A stretch of DNA of 64,000 nt from Candidatus Bathyarchaeota archaeon (GCA_963702095.1 OY969706.1:2272001-2336000); one strand, 5' to 3'. Shown: positions 7,304 to 33,669, counted from the first letter of the stretch. The notes: generated from the sequence alone by a model not told the origin. Numbers and translations: made by a program.

Positions 7304-7412
7304 GGTTTGCTGGGGCTCTGGAACCCGAACTAAAGGAGAAAAGAATGGAAAATGCAACTAAACCATTCTCAACTACCCATGACCGATTAATGTTATCCAG
7401 AGCCCACTCAGC
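7304..7412. repeat. Repeat family A copy 1: ~105-nt hairpin element (candidate ncRNA or recombination site)
   Basis: ggtttgctggggctctgga...aaaggagaaaagaatggaaaatgcaactaaaccattc...tccagagcccactcagc; outer and inner inverted repeats. Confidence 0.92.
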
Positions 7413-7437
7413 CCACATCTTACCAATGCAATTTGAT

Positions 7438-7459
7438 TCCCAAAAAAGGGAAAAGGAAG
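7438..7459 (-). terminator. Pyrimidine/U-rich archaeal terminator after beta-propeller gene 1 (equivalent tracts follow all seven paralogs)
   Basis: Minus strand ttccttttcccttttttggga ~20 nt after the stop; similar at ~11236-11257, 15204-15228, 19520-19542, 24363-24385, 29602-29626, 33690-33713. Confidence 0.7.
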
Positions 7460-7477
7460 CTGGTTTATCGATTGATC

Positions 7478-10147
7478 TTAAGGTCGTTTTTTGACTGACA
7501 TCAAGATAACTGCGCCGACGATGGAAATTGCTATAATTACGGCAACAGCAGAACCCAATATAGTCATAGTATTGTCGACCGCTTGTAACGGTTGTGTCGT
7601 TGGCGCTGGTGTCGCTGCTTCGCTAGCATGGAAATATGTCACGGCTGAAGATGGGTAATACGAGTTTGAACCACCAAAGGTAGCAATTATAGTGTAGTCT
7701 CCAGCTATATCGGGGGTCCATGTGAAGCCGTATGAGCCATAGGAGTTCGAAGTTGTTGTGCCAATCTCTCGGTAATTGTTGTTGGAGTCGACGACAGATA
7801 ATGTTACGGTTACACCTGTGGCGTCAGATGGTCGTGGTTGATCTTGGTAGGCGTATTCCATCCATTTGCTCTGGCTTTCTTCAGAAACACATGCTAGACC
7901 ATTTGGGAATTTCTTTGCAACCTCAGACTGTGTTGTACCCGCTGATATGTCTGTTACAGTGCCAGTGATAGTAATTGGTGTAGCAGTAGTCACTCCAACG
8001 TCTGGAACATCTACAGTCAATTTGCTGGGTCCCTTGGCAAAGGCATAAATCTGGTTGTCATAGCAGTTCAACGAGATCAAAGTGTTGTAAGCAATTGCAG
8101 TAGCGACAACATATGTTCCTAACTCTTTCCAGATTAGTGTACCATCTGTTAGGTTAATAGCTAACATCTGTGCACCATGGAACAGCGGTGGGTTGTATTC
8201 ATGTCCTATTGGAAGATATGCAACGTCATTGGTATAAGCTTGGCAACGGAATGTCCACAGTGGCCACATGCCATAGGGGCTTTCGATGCCTGGATCGCCG
8301 ATGAGTGTTGTTGTGTTGGTGTACCATAGTTGTTTGCCAGTCTTTGTTTCAATAGCCCATATGTCGCCGCCTAAACCGGCGATGATAATTTTGCCGTTAG
8401 CTCCAGAGTAGCCAGCTGTTCCACCTAACATTGAATAGGTGCTTGGTTCGCCATTACCGTAGGGGGTTTTAAGTGCTGTTTCCCATGCTTTGGCACCAGT
8501 TCGGCAGTCAATGCCTGTGCTTATCCAGTTTACGTGGTTAGTTATGGATACGATTCCGTCATCAACTATTATTGATGCTCTAGTGAATGGCAGTAGTGAT
8601 TTGCAGTCTGGGTAAGTCAAGTTTTTGGACCACAATGTAGTACCATCAGCGGCATCCATGGAAGCCATTACTAGGTAACCAGTTGATTGGTCGGAAGCGT
8701 GAATTAATCCCGAAGTTAGAATAACAGTGTTGCTGCATAACCGCGATACTGAAAGTGTTGGGGTAATGGTTACGTCATTGACTGTTAAAGGAATTGGTTT
8801 AGCCCACATTAATCCGTAGCCCGCATCAATAGCGTTGTTTGTGGTTGGATACCATAGCCAATCATTGACTAAAGCCTTTGAAAGGTTAAAGCAGCATAAG
8901 GCAGGTGTGGTAATGTTTATCACTTCTTTGACCTGTGGGATTTGGAAACCGACCATCGGTATCATTGGTGTTTGTTGATAGGTTCTGACTTGACCAATAG
9001 TGCGATTGATATAGTATCCGATTAAGTTACCAGTTGCATCGGTTGTTAAAGTCATTGAACTAGCATTGCATATGCTGCATACGTATTTTCCACTTAACGC
9101 AGAGTATAGGTTATATTGGGTTCCAAAGTTTTTGTAAACGATTCCTCCAGTTTCAGCTGCGGGAAGAGCACCAGTAGTTATAACGTACGGACCGACGACA
9201 CCATATGCGTTGACTGTTTTCCATTCGTTAGCCATGCCTGTGGCTAAAATTGAAGTCGTGTTGATAGTGTACAGCGTTTCACCTGTAGCAAGATCGGTGC
9301 AAATGATACCAGATGGGCAACCGTAGCTTTCAGGGTACCAGGTGGAGTACATTTTGTCAGCAATTATAACTGGCGCAAACTGTGGGGTATATTGTCTTGT
9401 TGACCAGTAATGTCCTGATTCTTCGTCGCCACCAGCTTCACCGCCGACTACACCGCCAGTACACCAGACTTTAGTCCAAATGACGTGACCAGAAAGTACT
9501 GAAGCAGTGTAGGGGTTGCATAAGCTTGTTGCATTGTAGTATCCCACTGATCCCCCGAGACCCCATGGACCCATGTACTTGTACCATTCCTGAACGTTCT
9601 GTGCTGAGACGGGTGCTTCCCAATATTCTGTTGGAAGTGGCGTTATTGGATATGCAGTTTGTGTGATGGGCTCTTCTTGTACAGTTAATGTAACGACTTC
9701 GCTTTGGCTTGGCATTTCTTTGAGACCTACAAATCCGTCACCGAGAAGCGCATTTCTAAGTGTGGTTTGTCCACCGTAGAAGAATTGAAAAGTCCAATTG
9801 CCTACTTGGTCAGGTACAAAGTTGAAGTATGATCCACCAGTTGTGTCGCCTGTTATTGGACCTCTTGTTTCTACATTACCGTCTGGGTCAGTGATTTTAA
9901 CTGTCATGTTTGTTACTGCTTCGCCGGATTGTATTGAAGTTGCTAGAAAGAAGTTGACGTTGACTGTTTGACCTACCCCAATTGGGTTAGGAGCTACGCT
10001 GATAAAAGCATACGTCGGAATTTCTGTTCCAGGAGCAAATGTTGTATCAGCTAATGCCGAAGACAGCAATGTTGAGCCAGCAATCAGAAGAATAAGCAGC
10101 GTTGCGATTGCACTTTTTATATTTCTTGCATCAATTTTAAATTTCAT
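7478..10147 (-). CDS. Secreted PQQ-binding-like beta-propeller repeat protein, paralog 1 (signal peptide, Ig-like ends, C-terminal TM + KKRP)
   Basis: 889 aa; N-terminal hydrophobic signal, APNPIGVGQ motif, A.D..TG...W repeats, YDNQIYAF, WTPDIAGDY, C-terminal TM. Confidence 0.85.
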   Translation of the reverse strand: MKFKIDARNIKSAIATLLILLIAGSTLLSSALADTTFAPGTEIPTYAFISVAPNPIGVGQTVNVNFFLATSIQSGEAVTNMTVKITDPDGNVETRGPITGDTTGGSYFNFVPDQVGNWTFQFFYGGQTTLRNALLGDGFVGLKEMPSQSEVVTLTVQEEPITQTAYPITPLPTEYWEAPVSAQNVQEWYKYMGPWGLGGSVGYYNATSLCNPYTASVLSGHVIWTKVWCTGGVVGGEAGGDEESGHYWSTRQYTPQFAPVIIADKMYSTWYPESYGCPSGIICTDLATGETLYTINTTSILATGMANEWKTVNAYGVVGPYVITTGALPAAETGGIVYKNFGTQYNLYSALSGKYVCSICNASSMTLTTDATGNLIGYYINRTIGQVRTYQQTPMIPMVGFQIPQVKEVINITTPALCCFNLSKALVNDWLWYPTTNNAIDAGYGLMWAKPIPLTVNDVTITPTLSVSRLCSNTVILTSGLIHASDQSTGYLVMASMDAADGTTLWSKNLTYPDCKSLLPFTRASIIVDDGIVSITNHVNWISTGIDCRTGAKAWETALKTPYGNGEPSTYSMLGGTAGYSGANGKIIIAGLGGDIWAIETKTGKQLWYTNTTTLIGDPGIESPYGMWPLWTFRCQAYTNDVAYLPIGHEYNPPLFHGAQMLAINLTDGTLIWKELGTYVVATAIAYNTLISLNCYDNQIYAFAKGPSKLTVDVPDVGVTTATPITITGTVTDISAGTTQSEVAKKFPNGLACVSEESQSKWMEYAYQDQPRPSDATGVTVTLSVVDSNNNYREIGTTTSNSYGSYGFTWTPDIAGDYTIIATFGGSNSYYPSSAVTYFHASEAATPAPTTQPLQAVDNTMTILGSAVAVIIAISIVGAVILMSVKKRP

Positions 10148-10202
10148 TTTTATCTCCTTTTTGTGCGGGTAGGGTAAACTCCCAAACTCTATTTATAACA
10201 AA

Positions 10203-10284: not shown

Positions 10285-11085
10285 TTAAATACTTTTGGAA
10301 TTTTGCCACAATAGCTCAAAATATTCTTGGAATACACCCACAACCGTAGTGTTATCCATAAGTAAACTCGCAGTCATAGGCTTAGAAATCATAGGTTCGA
10401 TAGTAACGAAAACCTTTTTCTTATCCCATAGCGATAACGTAGCTTGAGGGATCGCCTCAGTTCTTTTAATCGCAATATTACCGTAATCCCCAAAAAAACC
10501 GGATAACTCCACGGGATTTTTGTTTTTTTCAGTAAAAATGATAAGCCGTATTTTTATGCCCCTAAGTAATAGTTTTTTAAACATCACTACAAAAAAATCC
10601 TTTCGTAATTCTACATCGCGGTAAAAAAGAATACCATCATGGCAACTCTTGCTTAAGTCAACCAATTCGTTCAATTTTCGGAATGTGAATTTTTCACCGG
10701 GGACAAGAGCGAATTGACATGATTTCCCCTCGTTAGATCCATTGCTTCTCTGTTTGTATCTTTCCAATAATTTCTTCGCGTTGATCTCATTTTCTTCATA
10801 ATCGCTCTTCCTATGTTCAAGTAACAGTCTTAAACCTTCATTCATCGGCAACGCTTTAAAGGTGGTTGGATTAGTCAGAAACTGTTCGACCAAATTGAGT
10901 TTGAATAGTTCTTTTACCGCTCGATAGACATTGGCTCTATCAATCTTTGAGATTGATGCGAGAGTGTTTACCGTTGCGTTCTCCAATTCTAAAATAGCAA
11001 GGTAAATTTTAGCTTGACTTTTAGTCAGCCCGAGACTCGTCAAAGTCTGAATTTCAGACTCCAGATTAACATTTATTGATGTCAT
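10285..11085 (-). CDS. TrmB-family transcriptional regulator
   Basis: LTSLGLTKSQAKIYLAIL...IDRANVYRAVKEL...PTTFKALP; C-terminal effector domain ending FELLW. Confidence 0.88.
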   Translation of the reverse strand: MTSINVNLESEIQTLTSLGLTKSQAKIYLAILELENATVNTLASISKIDRANVYRAVKELFKLNLVEQFLTNPTTFKALPMNEGLRLLLEHRKSDYEENEINAKKLLERYKQRSNGSNEGKSCQFALVPGEKFTFRKLNELVDLSKSCHDGILFYRDVELRKDFFVVMFKKLLLRGIKIRLIIFTEKNKNPVELSGFFGDYGNIAIKRTEAIPQATLSLWDKKKVFVTIEPMISKPMTASLLMDNTTVVGVFQEYFELLWQNSKSI

Positions 11086-11110
11086 TCTTAAGCGCTCTTA
11101 TTAGATTAGA

Positions 11111-11215
11111 GGTTTGCTGGGGCTCTGGAACCCGATTAAGGAAGAGAAGAATGGAAAATGCAAATAACCATTCTCAACTACCCGCGATTATTAGATTTTC
11201 CAGAGCCCGCTCAGC
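11111..11215. repeat. Repeat family A copy 2
   Basis: ggtttgctggggctctggaacccgattaaggaagagaagaatggaaaatgcaaataaccattc...tccagagcccgctcagc. Confidence 0.92.
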
Positions 11216-11276
11216 CACTACTTAGCTGTTCTAATCCCAAAAAAAGGGAAAGGGAAATTATTTCAATCAATTGTTT

Positions 11277-13889
11277 TTATGGTCGTTTCCTAAGCGCTAG
11301 TATACCGAAGATTGCGACTGCGATTATGACCGCTATGCCTGTTCCTACGATAGTCATTGTATAGTCAGCTTGCACTGGTATCTGTGGCTGTGCCGTAGGT
11401 TCTGGTGCATTATCTACTTGTATGGCAGATTCGGCGTATGAGCCGTAATAGGATTTAGAGCCTGCAAATGTAGCAAGGATAGTGTATTTACCGGGAACCT
11501 CCGGAGTAAACACATAGCTATAACTGCCGCTTGTATCACTGGTAGTTCTACCGACTTCATAGAAGTTGTTGTTTGGATCAATCACTGACAAAACCACCTC
11601 AACACCTGTAGCGTTGGTGGGCTGTACCTGATCCATCCACAGATAAGCCATCCATGCACTTTGGGATTCGTCAGAAACTGCGGGAACACCATTGGGGAAA
11701 CGCGTTGTCAGTTCAGTATTTTGTGAATAACCTGGACTATTATCTGTAACTGTGCCTTCCACAATTACGCTGTTGCCATTCACTGAAGTCTTCGGTGATG
11801 CTGTGACAGTTGTTGAGCTTTGACCTTTACCGAAAGCGTAAAGTTGCATATCATAGCTGTTGAGGCCTACAAGGATGCCGTCTGAGATGATGATGTTGCT
11901 TGGGGTAATATAAGCATCAGCCCAGAAAGGCACACTAAATATTTCAGTACCATCAGTCGCATTGATGCAGCGAATCATTGCTCCGCGCCAGAAAGGCTGG
12001 TTTGGCGAGTGCTCACTTGAGGTAAAGTATAGTTTTCCGTCAGACATGCACCCGTATATTAGCGGGTAATTCGGGTAGGGAGATTCTGTTCCAATGGTGT
12101 CAGCAACGTATTTCCAAAGAACATTACCGTTAGTGACGTTGTAAGCGTTTACTTCACCGCCCATGCCATAGGTTATCAACATACCGTCGTAGATTATGCT
12201 ACTCATAGTGAAGAAGTTCCATTCAGTCTCTGGGTCGCTATGCCACACCTGTTGTCCAGTCGTCAAGTCATAAGCATACCATGTCCTTAAGTCATCGTTT
12301 TTAAAGAAGAAGCGGTTGTATTCCGGATACACTTTATCGAAGGTCATAGATAAGTTGCCGGGGGATGTTGATGGCGGCGTAAAAGTAATATTACTCAGCA
12401 GAGTGCCTTCAGAACCTGTCTTCAGGCTTACAGTCCAAAGTTGACCCGTTGTAGTCACTGAAGTCCCTAAGCCTACAGGATTTGAATCTGAAGAGCTTAT
12501 GCCTGTTGTTCCACCGATGATAGATTCGCCTTCACGAATTGACATTATCGAACCAGCTAAGTCAGGCACTGAGACGTTCAATGAGTAACCGTTGGCGCCG
12601 TTTACAGTTGCACTGCCTCTTGCTAAACCGAATTCGCTATCAGCAGCTACAAAGTTGCCAAATGGATCACTTGCACCGAATAGTACAGCTCTTGAAGTAT
12701 TCCAAATTTGCAAATAGCGGTTGGGGTTTGTAGCGTTTCCAATATTAACAATGTTGTAACGCAATACGCTTCCGTCTTTGCCCGTAACAGTTGTGCCGCT
12801 GCCAGCGTTAGTTATGTTGAAAATCGCCTTGTTCGAGTATGGATCATATGCAGTCCATGTGGTGCCGCTGATTGACCATAGATATGGGAAGACTCCGTGC
12901 ACGTTCATAGAATGGTAGTTCATCAACGAAGCAAAGTTTAAGGTTCCTGATCGCCAGAGGTCTGTTAGCTCTTCGCCTGAATACAAATCGTAGACGTAAA
13001 CGCCTGCATTTTGGTCCCATGTGTTGATGTTTCTTTGGCAGTAAATTTTTCCGTCGACTATCACTGAGGGCTGACTAAATGCTTGGTATTCTTTGCCGAT
13101 CCAAAAGCCTTGTGCTGATTCAAAGCGAGCGTCGACAGCGCCACCGACCCAAAACGGCGTTGCCCATAGTACGTGTCCACTCTCTGGAGCTGAACCGTAG
13201 GCATAGTTAGCTGTTCCACCGTAAGAGCCTGTTGGGTAATACTGAGCACCAGAAGAGGTTCCCAGCCAGTTGCCTAAAATTGGCCACCAATCTCTGCTCA
13301 TACTGTTTACTGGACGAGCCCAATACTCAGTTGGAAGCGGAGATTCAACCCACGTCTCAATCGGATCAGCCTGAACTGTCAAAACGAACGGCTCACTAGT
13401 ACTATCCCCGAAGGTATCGTTGAGATAGGCTTGGTTATATTGTGACTGCGTTGTTCCTGGGCGTAACCCTAATCCCAAATCCCAAGTTATGGTCTCTTTG
13501 GAGTGGTGAGCTACAAATGTGTAGTTACCCTCTTGATCAGGCACATAAACAAAGGAGGCTGCGCCCGCTGCATCAGACATTATAGTGCGTGTTTCGTTAG
13601 TGTTGTCAGGCTTGGTGATTGTTAAGTCGAAAGTCCATCTGCCGCCATATCCATAATTATCAGCTGTCGGCGGCCACCAGTTAAGCCAGACAACGACAAG
13701 CGCGTCTTGACTTACACCAATAGGATTCGGTGACACTGTGACGTAGGTAAAGGTATCATAATTCCATGCGGGAGTGTGCGATTGAGCCATTGGCAAAGCA
13801 ATAAGTGAGATTACAGCGGTTACCATTAGAATCAAGGCCAGCATCGTAAGTTCTGTCTTACCAAGTTTTATTTGTCTAATTTCTTTCAT
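11277..13889 (-). CDS. PQQ-like beta-propeller surface protein, paralog 2
   Basis: 870 aa, same architecture as paralog 1; ends TM + RKRP. Confidence 0.85.
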   Translation of the reverse strand: MKEIRQIKLGKTELTMLALILMVTAVISLIALPMAQSHTPAWNYDTFTYVTVSPNPIGVSQDALVVVWLNWWPPTADNYGYGGRWTFDLTITKPDNTNETRTIMSDAAGAASFVYVPDQEGNYTFVAHHSKETITWDLGLGLRPGTTQSQYNQAYLNDTFGDSTSEPFVLTVQADPIETWVESPLPTEYWARPVNSMSRDWWPILGNWLGTSSGAQYYPTGSYGGTANYAYGSAPESGHVLWATPFWVGGAVDARFESAQGFWIGKEYQAFSQPSVIVDGKIYCQRNINTWDQNAGVYVYDLYSGEELTDLWRSGTLNFASLMNYHSMNVHGVFPYLWSISGTTWTAYDPYSNKAIFNITNAGSGTTVTGKDGSVLRYNIVNIGNATNPNRYLQIWNTSRAVLFGASDPFGNFVAADSEFGLARGSATVNGANGYSLNVSVPDLAGSIMSIREGESIIGGTTGISSSDSNPVGLGTSVTTTGQLWTVSLKTGSEGTLLSNITFTPPSTSPGNLSMTFDKVYPEYNRFFFKNDDLRTWYAYDLTTGQQVWHSDPETEWNFFTMSSIIYDGMLITYGMGGEVNAYNVTNGNVLWKYVADTIGTESPYPNYPLIYGCMSDGKLYFTSSEHSPNQPFWRGAMIRCINATDGTEIFSVPFWADAYITPSNIIISDGILVGLNSYDMQLYAFGKGQSSTTVTASPKTSVNGNSVIVEGTVTDNSPGYSQNTELTTRFPNGVPAVSDESQSAWMAYLWMDQVQPTNATGVEVVLSVIDPNNNFYEVGRTTSDTSGSYSYVFTPEVPGKYTILATFAGSKSYYGSYAESAIQVDNAPEPTAQPQIPVQADYTMTIVGTGIAVIIAVAIFGILALRKRP

Positions 13890-14033: not shown

Positions 14034-14711
14034 ATGTTCGATATCGAGCGAATAGTAATAGAGATGGTTTCAGCAATAGCCTGCTTCATCCTCGTAAAAT
14101 TCATGATAAAACCGTTTCAACTGACAGGAGAAACTAGACATCTTTTTTTAGCTCTCGGATTTGGTTTACTTGGCGCATCCTACGCGTTTTCAGCCATATC
14201 GTTCGCGCTTGAAGCACTCCAAACGTGGTCACCTGTTTTCATTAGCTGGTTCTGGGTGGAGCTTCTGGTGAGAGCATTCGCCTTCCTATTTCTCGCAATT
14301 ACATATTACTTTTCAAGATTGGAGAAAAAAACTAAGCCATTATGGAATACAACCCTTGTTATTTTAGTGGCTCTTTTGGCAGTTTTAATCCTATCGGCGA
14401 TTATTTTTCCACAGTTGCCTTGGTCAAGTTATATAACCATCAATATTTATGTGCGGTTTTTTTCTTTGATATGCCTTCTTTACATTTCGATTCAATCTTT
14501 GAGAAGCCATATTGAGCAGGCAGAGCCAAAAACACTTATGGTTCCATTAGGGTACATTCTACTTGGAATAGGAACCTATTCATCGTTGATCGGTGCCGTT
14601 GACTTAACGCTTTTTCCGCTTTTTGGAGCGTTAGTGCTACGCCTAGCTGGTCTCGCGGTCTTGCTTTTCGTTTGCTATAAAACATTCTATAGTAAAGACA
14701 AGAGGGTATAA
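14034..14711 (+). CDS. ~7-TM integral membrane protein (putative sensor), paralog of 18398-19072
   Basis: Alternating hydrophobic helices; shared KP(F/Y).LT, LGFG.LG.S, FAF.F.A.TY.F, PLG, GAL.LR..GL motifs. Confidence 0.8.
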   Translation: MFDIERIVIEMVSAIACFILVKFMIKPFQLTGETRHLFLALGFGLLGASYAFSAISFALEALQTWSPVFISWFWVELLVRAFAFLFLAITYYFSRLEKKTKPLWNTTLVILVALLAVLILSAIIFPQLPWSSYITINIYVRFFSLICLLYISIQSLRSHIEQAEPKTLMVPLGYILLGIGTYSSLIGAVDLTLFPLFGALVLRLAGLAVLLFVCYKTFYSKDKRV

Positions 14712-15073: not shown

Positions 15074-15178
15074 GGTTTGCTGGGGCTCTGGAACCCGAAC
15101 TAAAGGAGAAAAGAACGGAAAATGCAACTAAACCATTCTCAACCGCGACTACGTTAATTTTATCTAGAGCTTCTCAGC
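15074..15178. repeat. Repeat family A copy 3
   Basis: Same element with variants gaacgg and tctagagcttctcagc. Confidence 0.92.
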
Positions 15179-15244
15179 CAACAGTTATAAATGCAATTTT
15201 GATCCCAAAAAAGGGGGAAAAGGGAAATTGTTTGTTTTTTGTGT

Positions 15245-19492: not shown

Positions 19493-19561
19493 CCATTTTT
19501 TATCCATTACATTTATTGTTCCCAAAAAAAGGGAAAGGGAAAGTTGTTTGTTACCTGTTTT

Positions 19562-24334: not shown

Positions 24335-24411
24335 CCATTTTTTTATCCATTGCATTTATTGTTCCCAAAAAAAGGGAAAGGGAAATTTGTTTTGTGTTTG
24401 TGTGGTGGTGT

Positions 24412-27145
24412 TTAGCGTTTTCGTAGCATCAGCACAACGAGGATTGCGCCGACTAGGAAGACTGCGACGAGGATTGCTGCGACTGCTGGCAGGAAGTATG
24501 AGTCGATGCTTGATGAGTTGTTTGATGTTGGTGGAGGTGTTGTTGCTTGTTGTGCTACTGCGAAGCTGCTTTCTGCGTATGAGGATGCATAGCCGTTTGT
24601 GCCTGCGAAGGATGCGATGACTGTGTAGTCGCCTGCGATGTCGGGAGTCCATGTTAAGCTGTATGCGCCTGATGCGTCAGTGGTTGCTGTGCCTATGGAT
24701 CTGTAGTTGCCGTTAGAGTCAAGCACGTTGACATCGACTGTGACACCGGTAAAGTTCATTGGCGCTGGTTGTTGTTGATAGACATAGCCCATCCAGTCTT
24801 TCATGGATGCATCAGATGACACTGGAACACCGTTGGGGAATTTGGCTTTGGCTGCTGTTTGCTGTGTGCCTGCTGCAACGTCTGTGACTGTTCCACGGAT
24901 AACTATTGGTTGACCGTAACTTGCTGCTAGGTTTGGTGCTGAAATGGTGGTTGCGCTTGGTCCGCGGCCGACGCTGTAGATTTGGTTGTCGTAGCCGTTG
25001 AGGAATACTGAGTAGCCGTCTGCGATTGCATAGCTTTGAGCGGTGAATTCGCCTGTGTAATCTGAGAGCGTCCAGATTTCTTCGCCGGTGGTTGCGTTGA
25101 TTGCGCGTGCTAGGGCGCCTTTGTAGATTGGTGTGCGTATGGTGTGTTCACTGCTGACCAGGTAAACGACATCGTTGCCTACGGCGTTGATAAAGGTCGG
25201 GTAGTCACCGTAGGGTGTGTTGAGGCCTGCATATGTGCTGTTGCCTGCGCCGCCGTTGCCGTAAGTCCAAAGTACGTCGCCGCTGGCGAGGTCATAGCAG
25301 TAGACGATGCCGCCGTAGGAGCTGCTGTAGAGTTTGCCGTTAGCTACTTGTCCGTATGGTTGTGCTGGTGCTGGTTGACCGTAGTAGTCCCAGTCAGTCT
25401 GAGACTCGGTTGGACCCCACATTTTCTCGCCAGTCAGTAGGCTGTAACCGACGAAGTTTGTAGTTTCTTTGTATGTTTCAACAAATACGTTTGAAACTGG
25501 GTCAGCGCCTGCGTAATAGACAGTTAAGTTACCTGCTGGTGGATCGACAGTCGTAGACCACATCTGAGTACCAAAGTGAGCGTCAGAGACGTTGATGTTT
25601 AAGCCGTAGTAGTTGTAGGGTGTCCAGCTTGGAGTAGTGAAGCTTGAGGGAGCAGCTGGGTAAGAGCCGTTCTCGAGCAATAGCATGTTATTGTAGAATG
25701 CTGCTAAAACGGTTGGTGCGGTGGGTGCATTGTAATCTGCTAATGAGATGTTCCAGTCGTAACTGTATGTTGGGCTTGCGGGGTTAACGTCGTTTCCGTT
25801 GACGATGAAGTTGCCATTTGTGGTTGAACCGATCATGGACCAGGTTGCGCCGTTGGTGGCATTGTGGAGTGCTGGTGTGTAGCCACTGTAATCCCATAGT
25901 TTTGAGGAGTTCCATTCAGCAAGGTACCAGTTTGGATTGGTTGCGTTGCCATAGTTGGTTACTACGTAGCGTAAGTGTTCACCGTTTGGTCCCATAGCTT
26001 CAGTGCCTGCAGGAACGCCAGTGACATTGAACAATGCTGTGCCTGTTAATGCGTCGAATGCACGTGCAAAGTTGGAGGTGAACAGAATAGGTTGCATAAC
26101 ACCGTGTTGGTTGGGGTCTTCAAGGTCATAAACGTAGCCAAATGATAGTGCTGGAACATCATTGCGTGACCAGAGAACTTGGCCTGTGCGTAGGTCAACT
26201 GCATCGGTTGGACCTGAATTGGTGCCTGAGAAGCCGACAGGTTCAGTGTAGTACAGAATACCATCGATTACGATTGGGTTAGTGAATCTTTGCAGATATG
26301 CTGAGCCTTCAAAGTAGGTGTTGCCTTGGATTGCAACTGAGTCACCGCCTGTGATACCGCCCATTTGCAATGGCTTAGTCCACATAATGTGGCTTGTCAT
26401 TGGACCAACTGCATCACCTGGATAGCGTTGCATCACTGACCCAAAAGCATAGATTGGGGGGCCAGTGGTGAAGCTGGTGATGTCGCCGGAGCCAGTTGCA
26501 GATAAGACGGGTGCACCTGTGCCGAGCCAGTTAGAAGAGACTGTCCACCAGTCACTGTTAGAACCATAGATTGGTCTTGTCCAGTAATCGGTTGGCAAGG
26601 GGTTGCTTCCGATGGCTGCAGGGATTTGTTCTTCTTGTACGGTGAGGGTTGTTGAGGTATTGCTTGGCAGATAGGTATCATTGACTAGTACTGAGGTGGG
26701 GTTGTAGCCGCCTTCGTATTGTGCGTATGCCTGTCCTGGGAATGAGAAGTACAATTTGTAGACGCCGACTTGGTCAGGGGTGAATTGCATGTATTGGTTA
26801 GAAGTTGAGTCATGGACTATGTCGAAGATTTTTGTGGTAACGTTACCGTCTGGCGCAACGATTGTTAGGTTGTAGTTGTGGAAGCGGTAATTGTTTGCTA
26901 GAGCAGCAACAGCGTTAGATTCGAAGCCTGCGCCGAATACTTGGTCAACCCACGTGAAGATGATCATGGATTCGGCCGACGCCAACGGGGTCAGGTGTTG
27001 CTTCGATGTAGGCGTGGGTTGGGATTTCCCATGATGGAGTGTGTGCTGAGACGTTTGGTATGGCTGCGACAGCGATTGAAGTCGTTAGTAGTACAGTGAG
27101 GATGATAGCGATTAGAGCTTGTTTTGATTTTGCGAAGTTATTCAT
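24412..27145 (-). CDS. PQQ-like beta-propeller surface protein, paralog 5 (apparent frameshift near 26970)
   Basis: Signal-peptide ORF 26945-27145 (...ATPDPVGVG) joins the 24412-26985 body. Confidence 0.8.
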
Positions 27146-27380: not shown

Positions 27381-28385
27381 GTGGTTAAAATAGAGCAATT
27401 CAGCGAAGTCCAAGCGAAAATTCTTAAACAGCTACTAGTTGACGGACGCAAAAGCGAGAAAGAAATTGCAGCAGCCACAGGGGTCTCAGAGCAAATTGTC
27501 AAAAAGAATTACCAAGAAATGGAAAAAAAAGGCGTAATCACAGGAGCAACCACACACATAAATTACAAACTGTTTGGCTACCAAGCAGTTAGTTACATCT
27601 CAATTAATGTACACTCCCAGCAAGCAGACAACCTCATCAAATACTTACGAGGGATGCCAGATGTCTACGCTGTTTATTCCACAGGGATAGGTGGAAGTGT
27701 TGATTGTCTGTTGATTCTAAGAACCTTCGAGCAATTAAACGAAGTCAAAGACTGCATTAAAAGAAATTTTTCCGTGCTTGAGATGAAGACTTCTATGTGG
27801 ACTGGAGTAAGAGAGATGAATTATAACATAGCAATCACTGAGGGAAATCGAAAAAATAATGGGTTAATCCACAGTGAGAAAACTAGTAGAGTAACCGCAA
27901 ATTTGATGCAGAAAACAGGTATAACCCTAGATGAGATCGACTTGAAAATGGCTGATCTTCTAACAGAGAACGGGCGGATACCTATCGAAGCCTTGGGTGA
28001 AAAATTAGGGCTTCCAACTTCAACTGCTAAAAGAAAGTTTGAAAGACTAAAAAACAATGGAGCTCTAAAAGTCACCATCCAGATTAGCCCATATAAAATC
28101 GGGTACCGTGCTCTTGGAATTTTTTTTGTAGTCACCTCAGACGAAGAATCCAGTCTCATTATCGACCAACTAAGCGAGATACCCGATATCATAAGCATAA
28201 TGAAAACAAGCGGAGATTATGATCTGCAGATATACGCGATGCTGCAGGACTTGGATCAGTTGCTTAACATTCAGGAAAGTATGGGTAAAATTCCGGGAAT
28301 AATAAAATTAGACACAGAACTATACAGATTTAGCGAAAAATGGATAAAATGGCCTACGCCAAGACAATATATGTCAACGCTATAG
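27381..28385 (+). CDS. Tandem-duplicated (double) Lrp/AsnC transcriptional regulator
   Basis: Two HTH+RAM units: KILKQLLVDGRKS..., LDEIDLKMADLLTENGRIP..., SGDYDL. Confidence 0.87.
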   Translation: MVKIEQFSEVQAKILKQLLVDGRKSEKEIAAATGVSEQIVKKNYQEMEKKGVITGATTHINYKLFGYQAVSYISINVHSQQADNLIKYLRGMPDVYAVYSTGIGGSVDCLLILRTFEQLNEVKDCIKRNFSVLEMKTSMWTGVREMNYNIAITEGNRKNNGLIHSEKTSRVTANLMQKTGITLDEIDLKMADLLTENGRIPIEALGEKLGLPTSTAKRKFERLKNNGALKVTIQISPYKIGYRALGIFFVVTSDEESSLIIDQLSEIPDIISIMKTSGDYDLQIYAMLQDLDQLLNIQESMGKIPGIIKLDTELYRFSEKWIKWPTPRQYMSTL

Positions 28386-28450: not shown

Positions 28451-29455
28451 ATGTCCAACAGGAGACCAGCGACTGCCAAACTCAATGACTTAGACGCAAA
28501 GATTCTAAGAATTCTGCTAAACGACGGTCGAACAGGCTTCGATGAATTGGCGAAAGCAGGTAAAGTCACCAAGAACGTCGCATGGAAACGTTTTAGGGTA
28601 ATGGAGAAAAAGGGCATTATTAAAGGGGCAACTGTTCAAATCAATTATGGCCATTTTGGGTTTGCTGTAAATGCAACGCTGCTAATCAGTGTTAATGCTG
28701 AACATGTTGAACATGTTATGGAGCTTATTCCGAAGATAATTGAGGTGCAAGCCAACCGGCAGTATAATTGTGTCTACAATGTCAGAGCAGTTGCTTGTTT
28801 GAGGGACCTAAATGAACTGGACACAATAAAACAGACAATAAAACAAAAGATACCCACGATTGGGCTGAAGACGTACATTTGGACGGGTGTTAGAAACATA
28901 CCTGAAAACCTGAACCTTAGAGGTAACTCAAAATATCCAGATGAGAACGTCGGACAAGAAAAAGCTAAAAGGGCAAGCAGCCCTAAGCCCGAAAATCCAA
29001 TTGATGATCTTGACAAACAAATCACTGAAAAGCTTACGTTGGATGGACGAGCCTCGTTTACTCAAATTGCAAAACAAATTGGAGTATCCACGGAAACCGT
29101 CATAAACAGGTACAGTAAACTCAGGGAAAAGGGTTCCTTGAAGGCATCAATTCAAATTGACCCCAAAAAAATAGGTTACTACTCTCTGGTAGATTTCAAC
29201 ATAGCCTTTGCAGTGCCCGGCAGCATGTCAAATGTAATTGTTGATTCACTTACAAAAATACCTGACATAGTAAATGTAACCAAAGTAAGCGGCGACTACG
29301 ACCTCCAAGGAACCGCAATGGTTAGAGACATATCTGAATCCTTTGCTATTCAAGACCAAATTGCCAGAATCAACGGCATAACAAAAGTTGAAGTTAGTGC
29401 AAGAAAAATTCCCGACACTTGGCCGGCGCCACATCAACACATCTCAACTTTCTGA
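28451..29455 (+). CDS. Double Lrp/AsnC transcriptional regulator
   Basis: LNDLDAKILRILLNDGRTGF...; IDDLDKQITEKLTLDGRASF...; SGDYDL. Confidence 0.87.
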   Translation: MSNRRPATAKLNDLDAKILRILLNDGRTGFDELAKAGKVTKNVAWKRFRVMEKKGIIKGATVQINYGHFGFAVNATLLISVNAEHVEHVMELIPKIIEVQANRQYNCVYNVRAVACLRDLNELDTIKQTIKQKIPTIGLKTYIWTGVRNIPENLNLRGNSKYPDENVGQEKAKRASSPKPENPIDDLDKQITEKLTLDGRASFTQIAKQIGVSTETVINRYSKLREKGSLKASIQIDPKKIGYYSLVDFNIAFAVPGSMSNVIVDSLTKIPDIVNVTKVSGDYDLQGTAMVRDISESFAIQDQIARINGITKVEVSARKIPDTWPAPHQHISTF

Positions 29456-29580: not shown

Positions 29581-29633
29581 CCATTTTTATGCATTTTTTC
29601 TTCCAAAAAAAAGGAAGAGGGGAAATTGTTTTT

Positions 29634-32311
29634 TTATGGACGTTTTCTGATGAGTAGTGCCAGTACAGCGCCGATAACGATGATTACCACGATTATGGCG
29701 ATGCCTATGGTCAAGATGTAGCTTTGAGTTGATGCCATGTCAAGCGTCGACTGTGTTGAGGTTGGTTGAGGTGGCTGCATTACTGTGAAGTGGTCTTCAG
29801 CGTATGATGGCCAATAACCGTTGGTGCCAACAAAGTTTGCGTAGACTGTGAAATCGCCAGAGATATCAGGAGTCCAAGTATAGCTGTAGATGCCTGTTGC
29901 ATCAGTGGTTGCAGTGCCAATTTGGCGGTAGTTACCATTGGAGTCAACAACGGAGAGAGCCACCGTGACACCAGTATAGTTGCTTGGTTGAGGCTCTTGC
30001 TGGTAGACATAGCCCATCCACTCTTTCATGCATGCGTCAGATGCAACGGGTACACCGTTTGGAAAGCGAGCAGATTGTTCATCTTGGGTTGTGCCGCTTG
30101 AGATATCAATGACTGAACCAGTGATGACTAGGGGTTGTTCCCATGCTAAGCCAGAGTGTGGCGCTGAAACTGAAGTAGTGCTTGGTCCTCTGCCGACGAC
30201 GTAAATTTGGTTGTCGTAACCGTTAACCAGGTGTTGAAGCCGTCTGCCATAGCGTAACTCATTTGGCCGAATTCCATAGTAACTGAGGAGATAGTCCAGA
30301 TTTCTGAACCGTCAGTTGCGTTGACTGCGCGGGCTAAACCACCCTTGTAGATGGGTGTAACCCATGTGTGTTCGGTTGTAGTCAAGTAGACAACGCCGTT
30401 TCCAACCGCATGTATGAAGGTTGGGATGTTACCGTATGGCCATGCAAAGCCGCTGTTTGTACTGTTACCTTCTCCGCCGTTGCCGTAGGTCCAGTCTAAG
30501 TTACCGGTTTTTGCGTCATAGCAGTAGAGTATGCCGCCCATTGCCATGCTGTAGAGTTTGCCATAAGCAAATTGACCAGATAGGACACCAGCGCTTGTGC
30601 TGCCGTAGTAGTCGAAGGCTGCCTGTTGCTCAGACATCCAAGTTTGTGCGCCTGTGTCTAAGTCGAATGCAACCCATTTTGTGGCTTCTTTGTAGGACTG
30701 CAGAAAGACGCGTGATTCCCAGTCGACGCCGCCTTGTACGACGGTGTAGTTGTTTGCTGGTGGGTCATATGTCTTCGACCATGATACTGAGCCGATTGCG
30801 CCTTTAGAAGAATCAAGGTTGACTAAGAAGTACGTGTATGGCGTTGTGCTTATTGTGCCGAAAGCCAAGTTTTCGCCGTTACAGGGCAATGTGCCGGTAT
30901 AACAGAGTATGCCATCTCCATATTTAGCTGCAACTATGGTTACTGGAGTTGTATCGGGCTTTGTGTTTAGCCAAGGTATTGAAACGTTCCAGTCGTAGAG
31001 TGTGTTAGTACCAGTGGAAACGCTACCATCTTTTACGCCAGTCATTGAGGGAGCCGCTGAAGTGCCAGGCAGAAAGACCTTTGTGCAGTTCCATTCGCCT
31101 AAGCGCCAATCGGGGTTTGTTGCGTTGCCTGCGTTAGATAGTACATAGTTTAAGTATTGACCGTCTGGACCCATTGATCTTCCAGAGGTGAATGTTGGTA
31201 CGTTGGTGATGTTGAATAGCCAGTTTCCTGTATATGCATCATAGCCCAGCCAAGTGTTTCCGACGATAGCGATTAAAACAGGTGGACATACACCGTGTTC
31301 GTTTTGGGTTTGAACGTTCATGATTAAGCCCATAGACAATGCAGGTACATCAGTTCTTGACCAAATTTCTTCTCCTGTCCGTAAATCAACGCATGTTGTA
31401 GGTCCATAGCCTGCTCCAGGGTTTTGTCTGTAGCCTGTGTTGCTGAATGAGATTGGTTCAGTGTAGAAGAGCATTCCGTCAAGTATGATTGGGTTGTTGT
31501 ATCTGATGAGGTAAGCTGAGCCGTCGAAGAAGGTTTGTCCGGGGATGTCATAGTTGTTTCCGCCGACCACACCTCCGCTCTGCATTGGTTTAGTCCACAT
31601 AATATGACTTGTCATAGATCCGATAGCGTCGCCAGGGTACACTGCTAAACCGTTAGATGCGCCCATGAGGGCATCGGTACCTGTTGCTGTCCAGCCGCCA
31701 TAGTTAGGTGCAGTTATACCGAGCCAGTTGGATGAGATGCTCCACCAGTCAGTGTTTTCACCATAGATGGGGCGAGTCCAATACTCAGATGGAAGCGGAT
31801 AGCTGGTGATGGCTGGGGGTATGGGTTCTTGTTGTACAGTGAGGGTGGTTGATGCACTGCTTGGGAGGAAGGTGTCGTTGACGTATAGTGAACCGGCTGG
31901 TTGGTCTGCTGCAGTTATGGTTTGTCCTGGATAGGTGAAGTTTATTGTATAGGTTCCGACTTCGGTTGGGGTAAAGGTTGTGGCTTGGTTGGATGTGGTG
32001 TCAGCTATGTATGGGAAGCTTTGAGTCTCTACGTGACCGGATGGCGAAGTGATGGTGAGTTGGAAGTTGTGGAATCGGTAGGTGTTCGTGTATCCTGAAC
32101 CATAGAAGTAGTTAGTTAAGAACATGAAGACATTGACTTGCTGGTCGACACCGATTGGATTTGGTGCGCAGACGACATAGGCGTAGGTTGGTATTTCCCA
32201 TCGGGGTTCATGTGCGTTTGCTGTTGGCATAAGTGTTGCGGTTGCTTCGATTGAGCATATTAATATTATCAATATTACTATAGCTAAGGTTTTGTTTTTT
32301 TCAAATTTCAT
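29634..32311 (-). CDS. PQQ-like beta-propeller surface protein, paralog 6 (apparent 1-nt deletion near 30225)
   Basis: tgg-tt-aac where paralog 7 has WFNGYDNQIY; downstream frame continues to RKRP. Confidence 0.8.
29775..30044. repeat. 270-bp direct repeat identical to 33871-34140
   Basis: ctgcattactgtg...gcgtcagatgc reads the same in both; the ORF track shows identical out-of-frame 76-aa ORFs. Confidence 0.9.
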
Positions 32312-32575
32312 TTTTTATTCTCCTTTTAGTTGGGTGGTTGGTCTTTTAGCGGATAAGCTATTTAAAATTTTGCAATTAATGTTTTTTTACAGAAATAATT
32401 TAACTTTAACAGGGGGCTATAGTTGAAACTTTTTTAAGCAATGAGGAACTCTGATACCATTGTGAAGGCAAAACAGAGAGCCAATAACATAGAGAAAGCA
32501 ACCGAACAACCAATAATGATATAATACAGACAAGTCCTCTTCGATAAACAGCAATCTCAAAAGCGTGAGAGCCGA

Positions 32576-33550
32576 ACGAGAGAAATTGACGAAAACGATT
32601 CAGCGATTCTAAGTGCGCTTTTAGTCGAATCGAGAACTAGCTTCACGGAATTATCTAAACGCTGCGGCATATCCGTAACAGCCGTTACAAAGAGGTATAC
32701 ACAACTAAAAAATTCAGGCATAATTCTCGCTGAACGCATGTTCCTAAATCCATTAAGCGTAGGCTATGAAAGCATCGCAGAAATCGGAATACTAACCGAC
32801 CTATCTGACAAAGAAAAAGTCAAAGAATCATTAAAAAACAAGCCCTCGGTAAGGGTCGCATCGCCAATAGGTAAATATGACATTAGCGGTCAAATATTTG
32901 CTCGAAAATTCAACGATTTATCAACACTAGTTCGTCAGATCGACATCAAACCATTCGTTAAAAGCTTAGATGTCTTAATCTTTGCTGATTTATGGGATAA
33001 CCCATGGCACCCCGAAAACCTAGTTATACCGCCAAAAGAAAAAGGCGAAAAAAAAGTATCCAAGCCCAAAAAAAGCTTTGAACCAACAGAACTGGATGAA
33101 ATAGACCTCAAAATCTGTAAAGCCTTAATGCAGAATTCGCGGGTGCCCTTCAAGAGTTTATCTCAACAAATAGGAATCTCAACATCCAACATCATTCAGA
33201 GGTATCGCTCGCTTCGAGAAAGAAACGTACTGAACCTCTCAAGCATAACTGTGGACCCTTCTAAATTGGGATACAAGGCGAACGTGGACAGCTACATCAA
33301 AGTTACAAACAGAGGAAGCATGGCTGAAGTAGAGGCACAACTGCTTGAGATACCGAATTTGACTTTCTGCGCCAAATTCATAGGAGGCACCTATGACCTA
33401 AGGATTGCAGTTAACGCTCGAGACTTCAACGATGTAAACTCTCTTAAAAAAGCAATTTACTCAATAGATAACATAAAACATGCTGAATTCTATATTTTTG
33501 TGAATCCGACCAGGTGGCCAACCGACTTTATAGGCGGTTCACTAATCTAA
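32576..33550 (+). CDS. Double Lrp/AsnC regulator (probable non-canonical ACG start)
   Basis: The first HTH (EIDENDSAILSALLVESRTSFTELSKRCGIS...) is in frame upstream of ATG 32738; no ATG/GTG/TTG back to the TAA at 32522. Confidence 0.82.
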   Translation, partial: TREIDENDSAILSALLVESRTSFTELSKRCGISVTAVTKRYTQLKNSGIILAERMFLNPLSVGYESIAEIGILTDLSDKEKVKESLKNKPSVRVASPIGKYDISGQIFARKFNDLSTLVRQIDIKPFVKSLDVLIFADLWDNPWHPENLVIPPKEKGEKKVSKPKKSFEPTELDEIDLKICKALMQNSRVPFKSLSQQIGISTSNIIQRYRSLRERNVLNLSSITVDPSKLGYKANVDSYIKVTNRGSMAEVEAQLLEIPNLTFCAKFIGGTYDLRIAVNARDFNDVNSLKKAIYSIDNIKHAEFYIFVNPTRWPTDFIGGSLI

Positions 33551-33563
33551 GACTTGGCTTTGT

Positions 33564-33669
33564 GGTTTGCTGGGGCTCTGGACCGCAACTAAAGGAGAAA
33601 AGAATGGAAAATGCAACTAAACCATTCTTCAACCGCGATCTGTTATTTCTATTCCAGAGCCCTCTCAGC
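33564..33669. repeat. Repeat family A copy 7
   Basis: ggtttgctggggctctggaccgcaactaaaggagaaaagaatgg...tccagagccctctcagc. Confidence 0.92.

Follow-up and report, generated by a model that had tools for sequence, protein, structure and literature searches.

A conserved element behind Bathyarchaeia surface-protein genes probably ends in the exact motif of the archaeal RNA-splicing enzyme and predicts a small excised, possibly circular RNA

Analysis of a 64-kb stretch of Bathyarchaeota DNA, referred to in its whole length as the window, and of related genomes reveals that an element found behind surface-protein genes is a genome-wide, lineage-wide family tied to one Bathyarchaeia surface-protein gene family, and that its structure is under selection, as covariation and an excess of pairing attest. 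The ends of the element are probably the exact motif of the archaeal RNA-splicing enzyme and would release a small, possibly circular, RNA of an undescribed kind. The reading that we prefer is that of a structured RNA on the same strand as the surface-protein gene, cut at a bulge-helix-bulge (BHB) to give an excised, probably circular, RNA of ~100 nt and a shortened 3′ UTR; we put its chances at about even. The more general reading of the initial annotation, a novel structured ncRNA or cis element linked to the gene family, is supported.

Seven propeller genes lie on the minus strand of the window, and each carries one element after its stop codon. The features are given below; the paralogues are assigned from the ORF list, Pfam and the C-terminal tail, and the spacers from the alignment.

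7304..7415, minus strand (mRNA-sense): element copy 1 (112 nt), R1 match 123.9 bits; MFE fold shows the 3-4-3 motif
11111..11218, minus strand: element copy 2 (108 nt), R1 match 115.8 bits
15074..15181, minus strand: element copy 3 (108 nt), R1 match 106.9 bits
19382..19495, minus strand: element copy 4 (114 nt), R1 match 121.1 bits
24224..24337, minus strand: element copy 5 (114 nt), R1 match 119.2 bits
29481..29583, minus strand: element copy 6 (103 nt), R1 match 97.1 bits
33564..33672, minus strand: element copy 7 (109 nt), R1 match 117.8 bits, and fold
60069..60169, minus strand: degenerate eighth copy, R1 match 41 bits, and alignment
7478..10147, minus strand: gene upstream of copy 1, 889 aa (ORF list; Pfam PQQ_2 and Filamin)
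11277-13889, minus strand: paralogue upstream of copy 2
15245-17860, minus strand: paralogue upstream of copy 3
19562-22343, minus strand: paralogue upstream of copy 4, two overlapping ORFs
24412-26985, minus strand: paralogue upstream of copy 5
29634-32311, minus strand: paralogue upstream of copy 6, split
33730-35749, minus strand: paralogue upstream of copy 7, two overlapping ORFs
10285-11085, minus strand: TrmB-type regulator gene (ORF list; Pfam TrmB)
7416-7477, 11219-11276 and 15182-15244, minus strand: spacers of copies 1, 2 and 3
19496..19561, minus strand: spacer between stop codon and element, copy 4, with a C-rich/T7 tract
24338-24411, 29584-29633 and 33673-33729, minus strand: spacers of copies 5, 6 and 7

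The seven plus-strand starts given by the initial annotation, which are the first coordinates of copies 1 to 7, are right (lengths 103-114 nt), and alignment of the seven copies shows that the sharp GGTTTGC boundary is real and that the inner GAATGG/CCATTC hairpin, with a 14-nt loop, and the variable segment are present. The distance from stop codon to element, put there at 55-80 nt, measures 50-74 nt past the TAA, although the U-rich run described with it does lie in the spacer, as T6-T8. The outer stem has the proposed one-sided bulge of 3 nt, which is its sole internal bulge and lies on the arm opposite GCTG+GGGCTCTGGA, but not the extra unpaired G, the 5′ arm being GCTG joined directly to GGGCTCTGGA. 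The eighth copy, absent from that annotation, has an intact CAGC-AAA-CC 3′ half and a decayed 5′ arm, and none of the neighbouring ORFs is a family gene upstream of it. The 14-nt arm motif occurs 20 times in the window with at most three mismatches, against 3.8 expected, a number reached in 0 of 100 shuffles. As had been claimed, the DNA of the element is conserved above that of the neighbouring genes: on average, pairs of the seven elements are 77% identical, pairs of the propeller coding sequences 54% over their last 300 nt and 51% over the next 600 nt, the spacers 57%, and the 100 nt past the element 30%, the random level.

The gene upstream of copy 1 encodes a signal peptide, a PQQ-like beta-propeller, a Filamin-Ig part and a C-terminal TM helix followed by a KKRP tail; the sense-strand 3′ end of copy 2 lies 26 nt ahead of the start codon of the TrmB-type gene. 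In the 2.94-Mb genome, 23 full copies and about 8 partial ones are dispersed genome-wide, 19 of the full copies standing behind a long ORF with a TM helix and an RKRP-like tail and the other four without a family gene. The link to the gene family drawn by the initial annotation extends to the order, where the element occurs in 40 of 151 genomes and the gene family in 38 of those 40. In relatives, 50 of 64 copies (by-eye count) lie behind such a gene, at 37-100 nt, and the element is kept behind orthologues of only 31% protein identity. Within the genus its distribution is patchy, tandem pairs are found now and then, and the element is dispensable for the genes because at least five congeneric species have the gene family without it.

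Covariation becomes visible once other species are included: in an alignment of 87 copies that spans many species, both sides have changed in 18 of 23 pairs (120 cells), compared with none of 24 pairs in the seven window copies alone. Across the same 87 copies 93.3% of cells are paired, a share that falls to 29-60% in controls with slid 3′ partners, and no measure was reached in any of 500 shuffles. The relatives alone (64 distinct copies) give 16 of 21 pairs with changes on both sides. Covariation is present in both stems of the element, and in the h′ helix (9-10 bp) all seven core pairs covary. Total length varies between 81 and 119 nt, and the end columns of the 87 aligned copies are practically constant in length.

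These ends, on the mRNA-sense strand, are predicted to form a strict 3-4-3 bulge-helix-bulge, GG-GCUG-ARN-stem...stem-CAGC-AAA-CC, composed of an outer helix GG(G)/(C)CC, a 4-bp helix GCUG/CAGC and the bulges A-R-N (5′) and AAA (3′); read along the window minus strand, each bulge comes 3′ of the GCUG or CAGC that it adjoins. In the passages of PMC3239211 and PMC7714728 from which we take the definition, the strict splicing-endonuclease motif is the "3-4-3 nt hBHBh′", with relaxed forms also taken by alpha-beta enzymes (PMC3239211). The element shows two opposite 3-nt bulges, a 4-bp centre, the polarity (on the minus strand only) and flanking helices of at least 2 bp. Its end columns are close to invariant in the 87 copies: the G ahead of GCUG is found in 87, the three bases of AAA in 87, 87 and 85, CC in 85 and the first A of the 5′ bulge in 86. 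GCUG/CAGC pairs in 97.7% of cells and the outer GG/CC in 92.5%; among the relatives, 54 of 64 copies pair in both the 4-bp and the 2-bp outer helix, and 7 more in the 4-bp helix alone. Covariation at the pair that opens the long helix (A-U 44, G-C 27, G-U 6) sets the register at precisely 4 bp followed by a 3-nt bulge. The bulge bases are conserved beyond the known needs of a BHB and may thus have another or an additional reader.

MFE folds leave both 3-nt bulges unpaired, and that of copy 4 has h of 6 bp, H of 4 bp, bulges of 3+3 nt and h′ of 10 bp (z = -3.9). The outer helix is weak in the element's own taxonomic family, with just 2-3 bp in most copies. In the relatives' copies, 20 of 64 stop at GG/CC, 44 continue by at least 1 bp and 8, mostly from one genus of a second family (g16), by 6-14 bp. 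In this genus the outer helix reaches 8-14 bp and covaries, its 6-9 added pairs differing in sequence between copies and including one G.U pair; the MFE folds there give a 12-bp h, then 4 bp between two 3-nt bulges, then h′ (z = -5.4 and -6.5).

The functional strand, on which the initial annotation did not decide, is probably mRNA-sense (window minus), because a BHB of the correct polarity forms only there. The control for polarity is a single tRNA intron of the same genome, that of tRNA-Leu(CAA) (ARAGORN intron 41-80), read by eye and set beside the textbook geometry, and its arrangement is that of the element ends: anticodon stem, 4-bp helix and 3-nt bulge along the 5′ strand; 4-bp helix, 3-nt bulge and stem along the 3′ strand; both junctions after the second bulge base. 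This order is found only on the window minus strand, the plus strand being its mirror image. The consensus fold of the 23 own copies reaches -22.4 kcal/mol in sense and -12.1 kcal/mol in antisense orientation, and in alignments fitted to the sense-strand model, of copies that are mutually related, sense-strand G.U cells outnumber those that would be G.U in antisense by 73 to 43 (about 1.7:1). Some copies lean the other way. One copy from g16 folds better antisense (-50.6 vs -44.4 kcal/mol), and the outer stem of window copy 3, the most deviant of the seven, contains three cells that mismatch as A.C in sense orientation but are G.U in antisense. The initial annotation's remarks on the stem substitutions of copies 3 and 4 are correct by the pair table.

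How the motif would be used can be laid out for our preferred reading. Read-through past the gene's first U-tract would yield transcripts with the element; a two-subunit splicing endonuclease of the alpha-beta type would cut within both bulges; RtcB would join the ends; and the products would be the excised, probably circular, RNA and the shortened 3′ UTR. The genome has two tRNA_int_endo genes (208 and 186 aa), coding for EndA subunits, and one RtcB gene; to our knowledge such genes are universal in archaea. For copy 4, the canonical rule together with the tRNA-Leu control predicts cuts at 19487/19486 and 19385/19384, after the second base of each 3-nt bulge, and an excised RNA of 102 nt (19486 down to 19385). 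The interior of the element contains a conserved pyrimidine-rich UCUUUUCUCCUU with CAU 6-14 nt upstream, together the complement of a Shine-Dalgarno-plus-AUG region; the excised RNA may therefore pair with ribosome-binding sites, or else bind protein. Of this scheme, we infer the transcription past the U-tract, the cutting and the circle formation, as well as any part in regulation. A run of five or more T, the usual archaeal termination signal, stands between stop codon and element in 84 of 96 copies overall, its end a median 27 nt ahead of the element, so most gene transcripts may end before the element; by-eye inspection of the flanks revealed no recognisable conserved promoter for it.

The same structure, covariation and gene association would also fit a cis element that belongs to a long isoform of the 3′ UTR and is not processed by the splicing endonuclease, its 3-4-3 geometry being coincidental or read by another factor. 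Such an element could be a protein platform for mRNA stability, translation or membrane targeting, or a termination or anti-termination device acting with the U-tract. The near-invariant loop and bulge bases, and a UGCAU-like motif that recurs within the element and just upstream, suggest sequence-specific recognition beyond the needs of a BHB and speak for this possibility, as does the weak outer helix of the own family. It leaves unexplained, however, why a 3-4-3 with tRNA-intron polarity is the most invariant part in two families and why both bulges remain unpaired where the outer helix grows in g16, and the U-tract ahead of the element is equally a problem for it; we regard it as possible, if rather doubtful. 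Unlikely, in our view, is a function of the plus strand, as a small RNA convergent with the gene and bearing a Shine-Dalgarno-like GGAG followed 6-14 nt on by ATG in the big loop; this RNA might serve as a decoy for ribosomes, be translated as a short leader, or regulate the 3′ end of the gene in antisense. At least one ATG does occur at antisense positions 25-75 in 90 of 96 distinct copies, by eye almost always just behind AAGGAG or AAGGAA, in a region that resembles real starts of the family genes (e.g., ...AAGGAGAUAAAAAUG); some copies have stem substitutions that are G.U on this strand alone, and window copies 4-7 have a T-run after the element. Yet over the 96 copies these ORFs vary in length (from 2 to more than 28 codons), shift frame at 1-nt indels and have no more than the first one or two residues in common, so that there is no conserved plus-strand peptide. 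We accordingly rejected a plus-strand small protein gene, which would lack a conserved reading frame or peptide across these copies. No TATA-like box is visible at constant distance upstream on the plus strand, where flank identity is 30%; both the balance of G.U cells and the energy of the consensus fold point to the opposite strand; and the bulges would lie 5′ of the 4-bp helix strands, a geometry for which we know of no reader.

A DNA-level repeat, either a MITE or an attC-like recombination site that moves or shuffles gene cassettes, could account for the inverted-repeat ends and sharp boundary, for the dispersal of 23 full and about 8 partial copies, and for the four copies without an adjacent family gene, the occasional tandem pairs and the patchiness in the genus; the asymmetric bulge and the place right behind each "cassette" ORF also recall attC sites. 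Yet the ends, checked by eye, do not seem to match the attC core consensus GTTRRRY/RYYYAAC, and the supposed cassettes, which have their own regulators, all belong to one paralogous family, unlike the unrelated promoterless cassettes of an integron. Flanking direct repeats are lacking in 77 of 96 copies, against 79.6 expected from shuffled pairings; orientation and distance to the upstream stop codon are constant; and the element stays with orthologues even at 31% protein identity. Pairing is moreover kept by compensatory changes while the interior diverges, which would not be expected after recent transposition bursts. We consider a DNA-level repeat very improbable and rejected a MITE specifically, on target-site duplications at chance level in the 96 copies and fixed orientation and spacing behind one gene family.

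Among known RNAs, Rfam 15 gives no match at gathering scores in the 64-kb window, in line with the initial annotation, which had recognised no known family; at E up to 10 it returns only generic hairpins far below threshold (best 31.5 bits vs a threshold of 130). Membership in an Rfam 15 family, including C/D, H/ACA and riboswitches, was rejected, no covariance-model score being near threshold. Bacterial REP/BIME-type elements and archaeal MITEs are likewise multi-copy imperfect palindromes just past stop codons, but they follow unrelated genes in both orientations with little covariation-type conservation across species, whereas the present element follows one gene family in one orientation, with compensatory changes across two taxonomic families. 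The intron of crenarchaeal cbf5 pre-mRNA, as described in PMC2738675 (cited in PMC7714728), is of BHB type and lies in coding sequence, where splicing is needed for the protein; by that description it shares with the element a BHB-type structure in a protein-coding transcript and a lineage with a heteromeric endonuclease, while the element is outside the ORF and dispensable. Archaeal 16S/23S pre-rRNA processing stems and tRNA introns are BHB substrates that give circular intermediates, according to the corresponding part of PMC7714728. As far as that account goes, they too have a long helix closing an RNA of ~100 nt or larger with a 3-4-3 at its base, an RtcB-made circle would be expected, and the polarity of the element is identical to that of the own tRNA-Leu intron; in contrast, the RNA enclosed here is not rRNA, tRNA or a known sRNA (no Rfam match), and it would be carried by the 3′ region of an mRNA. 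A BHB in a UTR is also known from the HVO_1309 mRNA of Haloferax volcanii, for which the passages of PMC7714728 concerned describe a 46-nt, single-copy 5′ UTR intron, cut in vitro by the splicing endonuclease and recovered as a circular RNA. Compared with that intron as described there, the present element is ~105 nt long, follows a U-tract in a 3′ region, numbers about 20-30 copies per genome, is specific to one surface-protein family and has a conserved interior, and its processing is a prediction.

The seven copies of the element that the initial annotation placed in the window coincide exactly with conserved blocks of 103-114 nt, each lying after a 50-74-nt spacer beyond the TAA stop codon of a surface-protein gene, and the sharp boundary described there (GGTTTGC on the plus strand) is present as well. 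Each spacer combines a C-rich stretch with a T6-T8 run. Mean pairwise identity is 77% for the element, 57% for the spacer, 54% for the last 300 nt of coding sequence and 30% for the 100 nt past the element, in agreement with the earlier remark that the element is better conserved than the genes. The arm motif has 20 matches in the window versus 3.8 expected (20 or more in 0 of 100 shuffles), and a decayed eighth copy is found further along. The seven upstream genes are minus-strand paralogues in which Pfam recognizes a PQQ_2/BamB-like propeller and a Filamin/Ig-like domain; all seven proteins have a hydrophobic helix and then a tail of RKRP/KKRP type at the C terminus.

Propeller genes (ORF list), regulator genes (Pfam) and selected element copies; window positions unless a fetched locus is named
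7478-10147, minus strand, propeller gene, intact
11277-13889, minus strand, propeller gene, intact
15245-17860, minus strand, propeller gene, intact
24412-26985, minus strand, propeller gene, intact
19562-22343, minus strand, propeller gene in two pieces
29634-32311, minus strand, propeller gene in two pieces
33730-35749, minus strand, propeller gene in two pieces
10285-11085, TrmB-type or Lrp/AsnC-type regulator gene
23260-24066, TrmB-type or Lrp/AsnC-type regulator gene
27381-28385, TrmB-type or Lrp/AsnC-type regulator gene
28451-29455, TrmB-type or Lrp/AsnC-type regulator gene
32738-33550, TrmB-type or Lrp/AsnC-type regulator gene
L074 (fetched locus) 6799-7599, TrmB-type or Lrp/AsnC-type regulator gene
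15074-15181, element copy 3, sense on the minus strand
19382-19495, element copy 4, sense on the minus strand
60069-60169, decayed eighth element copy

We note that a gene for a transcription regulator of the TrmB or Lrp/AsnC type goes with every propeller gene, a pairing that for the TrmB type is also present in the distant genus g16. Two ORFs of about 225 aa in the regulator position (14034-14711 and 18398-19072) gave no Pfam match. Three of the seven window propeller genes consist of two overlapping or adjacent ORFs, and further split family genes occur elsewhere in the genome (e.g., near 630.9k, 765.9k, 2726k and 2906.5k); either true pseudogenization or frameshift errors in the assembly may account for them.

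The proposed hairpin fold shows covariation in 0 of 24 predicted pairs when the seven window copies are taken alone; covariation is present once copies from other species are added. In an alignment of 87 copies, both-side changes are seen in 18 of 23 pairs (120 cells), and 93.3% of cells form standard pairs, versus 86.9% when shuffled and 29-60% when slid by 1-3 columns; the alignments were fitted to the model structure, so that the counts lean toward it, and the slid controls come from the same alignment. None of 500 shuffles matches any of five pairing measures. The 64 distinct copies of relatives on their own retain both-side changes in 16 of 21 pairs. Covariation extends to 7/7 core pairs of the long outer stem and to 7/7 pairs of the inner hairpin, where 20-34 of the 87 rows are gapped. 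The element as a whole measures 81-119 nt, its interior varying greatly in length among copies. Window copy 3 carries three A.C mismatches on the sense strand. We consider it very probable that this structured nucleic-acid element is under selection and linked to the propeller gene family.

The most invariant columns of the family are those at its ends. On the minus strand, the 5' end of every copy reads N-GG-GCUG-A-R-N before one arm of the long stem, and the other arm is followed at the 3' end by CAGC-AAA-CC. The G before GCUG is kept in 87 of 87 copies, the three A residues in 87, 87 and 85, and CC in 85. GCUG pairs with CAGC (4 bp) and GG with CC, with A-R-N and AAA unpaired on opposite strands. 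As modelled on the gene's strand, the element ends form a strict 3-4-3 hBHBh' motif (bulge-helix-bulge, BHB), which excerpts of PMC3239211 and PMC7714728 describe as defining archaeal splicing-endonuclease substrates. Minimum-free-energy folds of g16 copies give the textbook motif (z = -5.4 and -6.5), and that of copy 4 gives the same one (z = -3.9). A slipped 6-bp pairing can also be drawn in many relatives; this register is countered by the covarying first pair of the long stem (A-U 44, G-C 27, G-U 6) and by the near-invariant first bulge base, A in 86 of 87 copies. The outer helix is just 2-3 bp in most copies of the window's own taxonomic family (f1), with at least one pair beyond GG/CC in 44 of 64 copies, and in g16 it gains 6-9 further pairs whose sequences differ among copies and include one G.U pair. 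Conservation of the bulge bases exceeds what the BHB motif requires.

The two strands of a BHB motif are not interchangeable. As a control we used the tRNA-Leu(CAA) gene of the same genome, in which ARAGORN places an intron at gene positions 41-80. Read by eye, its 5' strand runs from the anticodon stem through the 4-bp helix to a 3-nt bulge, its 3' strand from the 4-bp helix through a 3-nt bulge to the stem, and both exon-intron junctions fall between the second and third bulge bases. The element matches this order on the minus strand only, the plus strand having its bulges 5' of the helix strands; the control is a single tRNA read by eye together with textbook geometry. The consensus fold of the genome's 23 full copies (-22.4 kcal/mol sense versus -12.1 antisense) and the G.U cells (73 sense versus 43 that would be G.U antisense) point in the same direction, to the gene's strand, but are weaker than polarity. 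In one g16 copy the antisense fold is more stable than the sense fold.

The genome encodes two endonuclease-domain proteins (208 and 186 aa) and the ligase RtcB. Judged from sequence, the two proteins suggest a heteromeric splicing endonuclease, a type that, according to an excerpt of PMC3239211, also takes relaxed motifs. Several of the genome's tRNA genes as called by ARAGORN, including Met, Asn and Arg, have introns at non-canonical positions, a pattern consistent with a broad-specificity two-subunit enzyme; the same list holds one 4-base anticodon call and one spurious 1.7-kb "intron".

In the processing model we propose, some transcripts of the surface-protein genes would run beyond the first U-tract and the element would fold within this read-through RNA. 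The endonuclease would then cut each bulge 3' of its second base, which for copy 4 means between 19487 and 19486 and between 19385 and 19384. Ligation by RtcB would yield an excised RNA of about 102 nt for copy 4, probably circular like the products of other BHB motifs, and would leave the 3' UTR shorter by the same length. Oligo-T is an archaeal termination signal, and 84 of 96 copies have a run of T5 or longer in the 60 nt upstream, with a median distance of 27 nt from the end of the run to the element; read-through must therefore be assumed. Another such run follows within 80 nt downstream in only 43 of 96 copies. Besides the upstream T-run, we count against the model the marginal outer helix in f1, the overly conserved bulge bases, the A.C mismatches of copy 3, the one g16 antisense fold and the gene carriers that lack the element. 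On balance, we give BHB processing about as much credence as doubt. Should it fail, the element would stand as a new, well-supported RNA family with a covarying structure and strict gene association.

Several features of the flanks were also observed. Between the U-tract and the element lies a semi-conserved motif, ...GCAAUGG... in the window and ...GCAAUGGAGAAGAGAUA in many relatives, 10-30 nt upstream in the relatives and likewise in the window copies; its UGCA core echoes UUUGCAUUU within the element. By eye, GGAGAAGAGA, the part of this motif that forms a conserved upstream flank in relatives, is complementary to the interior pyrimidine tract in some of them, a complementarity not retained in the window's genome. 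A second conserved block of about 45 nt, ending in T7-T9, directly follows a subset of copies in several genomes (within 80 nt downstream on the sense strand, e.g., fetched loci L034, L035, L062, L069, L046 and L078) and may be the true end of a long 3' UTR isoform.

Other identities were weighed against the same features. Rfam returned no credible family for the element, either at gathering thresholds or at E up to 10, in line with the initial annotation, which did not recognize it as a known RNA family, and ARAGORN called neither a tRNA nor a tmRNA in the window. An H/ACA sRNA is recognized by a stem, a pocket and an ANA box near the 3' end; the trinucleotide here is AAA, not ACA, and no K-turn or K-loop was seen by eye. 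A C/D box RNA is likewise rejected, CUGA occurring at the 5' end only and no C box being seen by eye. The plus strand keeps a conserved ATG, and the ORFs starting from it vary in length, frame and sequence, as a conserved peptide would not. Repeated copies might also suggest a MITE; flanking direct repeats are at chance level and there are no target-site duplications. Inspection by eye of either strand for a promoter of the element's own revealed no TATA-like box at a fixed distance.

In the genome, a single contig of 2.94 Mb, a profile of the seven window copies gives 39 matches at E up to 1, of which 23 are full length. Nineteen of these 23 lie 45-97 nt past the stop of a long ORF with a transmembrane-plus-basic tail, in constant orientation relative to this family ORF; the other four (about 100.5k, 364k, 2191.6k and 2723.8k) are without a family gene. 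By tblastn, the family forms 26 clusters, one with two genes, and seven clusters lack the element. Two near-identical copies, 2723786-2723897 (L005) and 2726081-2726192 (L007), lie on either side of a 497-aa ORF of the same strand, and only the second is preceded by a family gene.

With a covariance model of the seven window copies (R1), 21 of 24 further genomes of the genus are positive for the element, as is one genome from a different family. Of 151 order genomes sampled, 40 carry the element according to a second model, built from 87 copies (R2); leaving out the window's own genome, these are 20 of 35 in f1, 18 of 35 in the second family, f7 (all g16), 1 of 25 in f6 and none in other families. 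At class level, 12 of 151 sampled genomes carry it. The single match outside the order (one copy, G280:C523 1292-1400) comes from a small contig; the assembly has 550 contigs and 5% contamination, and the match may reflect contamination or transfer. One of the proteins, searched against the same 151 order genomes, was positive in 44. The association with the gene family proposed earlier holds among the sampled order genomes, with 38 of the 40 element-positive genomes carrying the family.

Co-occurrence of element and gene family in 151 order genomes (descriptive counts, related genomes not being independent)
Element and gene family: 38
Element only: 2 (G156, G124)
Gene family only: 6, all in the window's genus
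Neither: 105

Five of the six gene-only genomes, searched again at E up to 1, gave just two weak matches (E = 0.096 and 0.40); the one in G086 adjoins the 5' end of a neighbouring family gene and does not lie past its stop. Seven gene 3' regions of gene-only genomes, read by eye, keep the RKRP-stop ending and the T-tract, with no conserved block after it. Among 64 distinct copies of relatives, 50 trail an ORF with a transmembrane segment and RK(R/K)P tail by 37-100 nt (counted by eye). The g16 proteins upstream of the element are full-length homologues of just 31% identity (E = 2e-116), adjoined by a TrmB-type regulator gene. Given this divergence, the co-occurrence and the gene-only genomes, we conclude that element and gene family have travelled together for a long time and that the element can be lost. 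Several genomes have direct tandem pairs of the element with about 30-50 nt between the copies.

Direct tandem pairs of the element
L055 1501-1604 and 1632-1712
G097:C6 150802/150947
G062:C1 4356/4519
G082:C15 7274/7425
G042:C8 5031/5172
G098:C37 12610/12752

Across both families, the interior keeps a pyrimidine tract (UCUUUUCUCCUU) with CAU 6-14 nt 5' of it. On the antisense strand this reads GGAG...ATG (90 of 96 copies have one ATG or more) and resembles actual start regions of family genes. The predicted excised RNA would therefore hold the complement of a ribosome-binding site and start codon, and we speculate that it masks such sites or binds a protein. Gene-specific 5'-3' pairing finds no support, as the interior of a gene's own element is no better than those of its paralogues for its start region: for five window genes, mean duplex energies are -15.4 kcal/mol for own and -15.3 for other pairs, both barely better than shuffled start regions (-13.2 kcal/mol, sd 3.1). 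A bolder scheme, in which the read-through 3' UTR of each family gene yields its own BHB-excised circle that acts in trans as a stable translation repressor or decoy, so that expressing one paralogue would silence the others, seems to us improbable. If true, it would describe a splicing-endonuclease-dependent circular regulatory RNA family governing variable proteins of the cell surface in archaea of an uncultured lineage. The element would also mark a large, regulator-paired, membrane-anchored propeller family as a candidate for unusual post-transcriptional control.

Strict BHB motifs in mRNA 3' regions at tens of copies per genome would, if true, greatly enlarge the list of endonuclease substrates and point to an entire class of circular, gene-linked RNAs in Bathyarchaeia, whose specific junction sequences would offer a testable handle for mining metatranscriptomes of unculturable organisms. 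The literature on archaeal BHB and circular RNAs and on Bathyarchaeia ncRNA, supplements aside, gave no description of such an element. Excerpts of PMC7714728 name two substrates outside tRNA and rRNA, the coding-region intron of crenarchaeal cbf5 and the Haloferax HVO_1309 intron in the 5' UTR. The HVO_1309 intron, 46 nt long, was cleaved in vitro and isolated in circular form. Like the HVO_1309 intron as described there, the element, known here from sequence, combines a BHB motif with a UTR setting. Unlike both substrates as these excerpts present them, it is a multi-copy feature of the 3' region that belongs specifically to one gene family and is kept across two taxonomic families with a conserved interior; on the modelled fold, it would be a BHB-bounded RNA in a new context.
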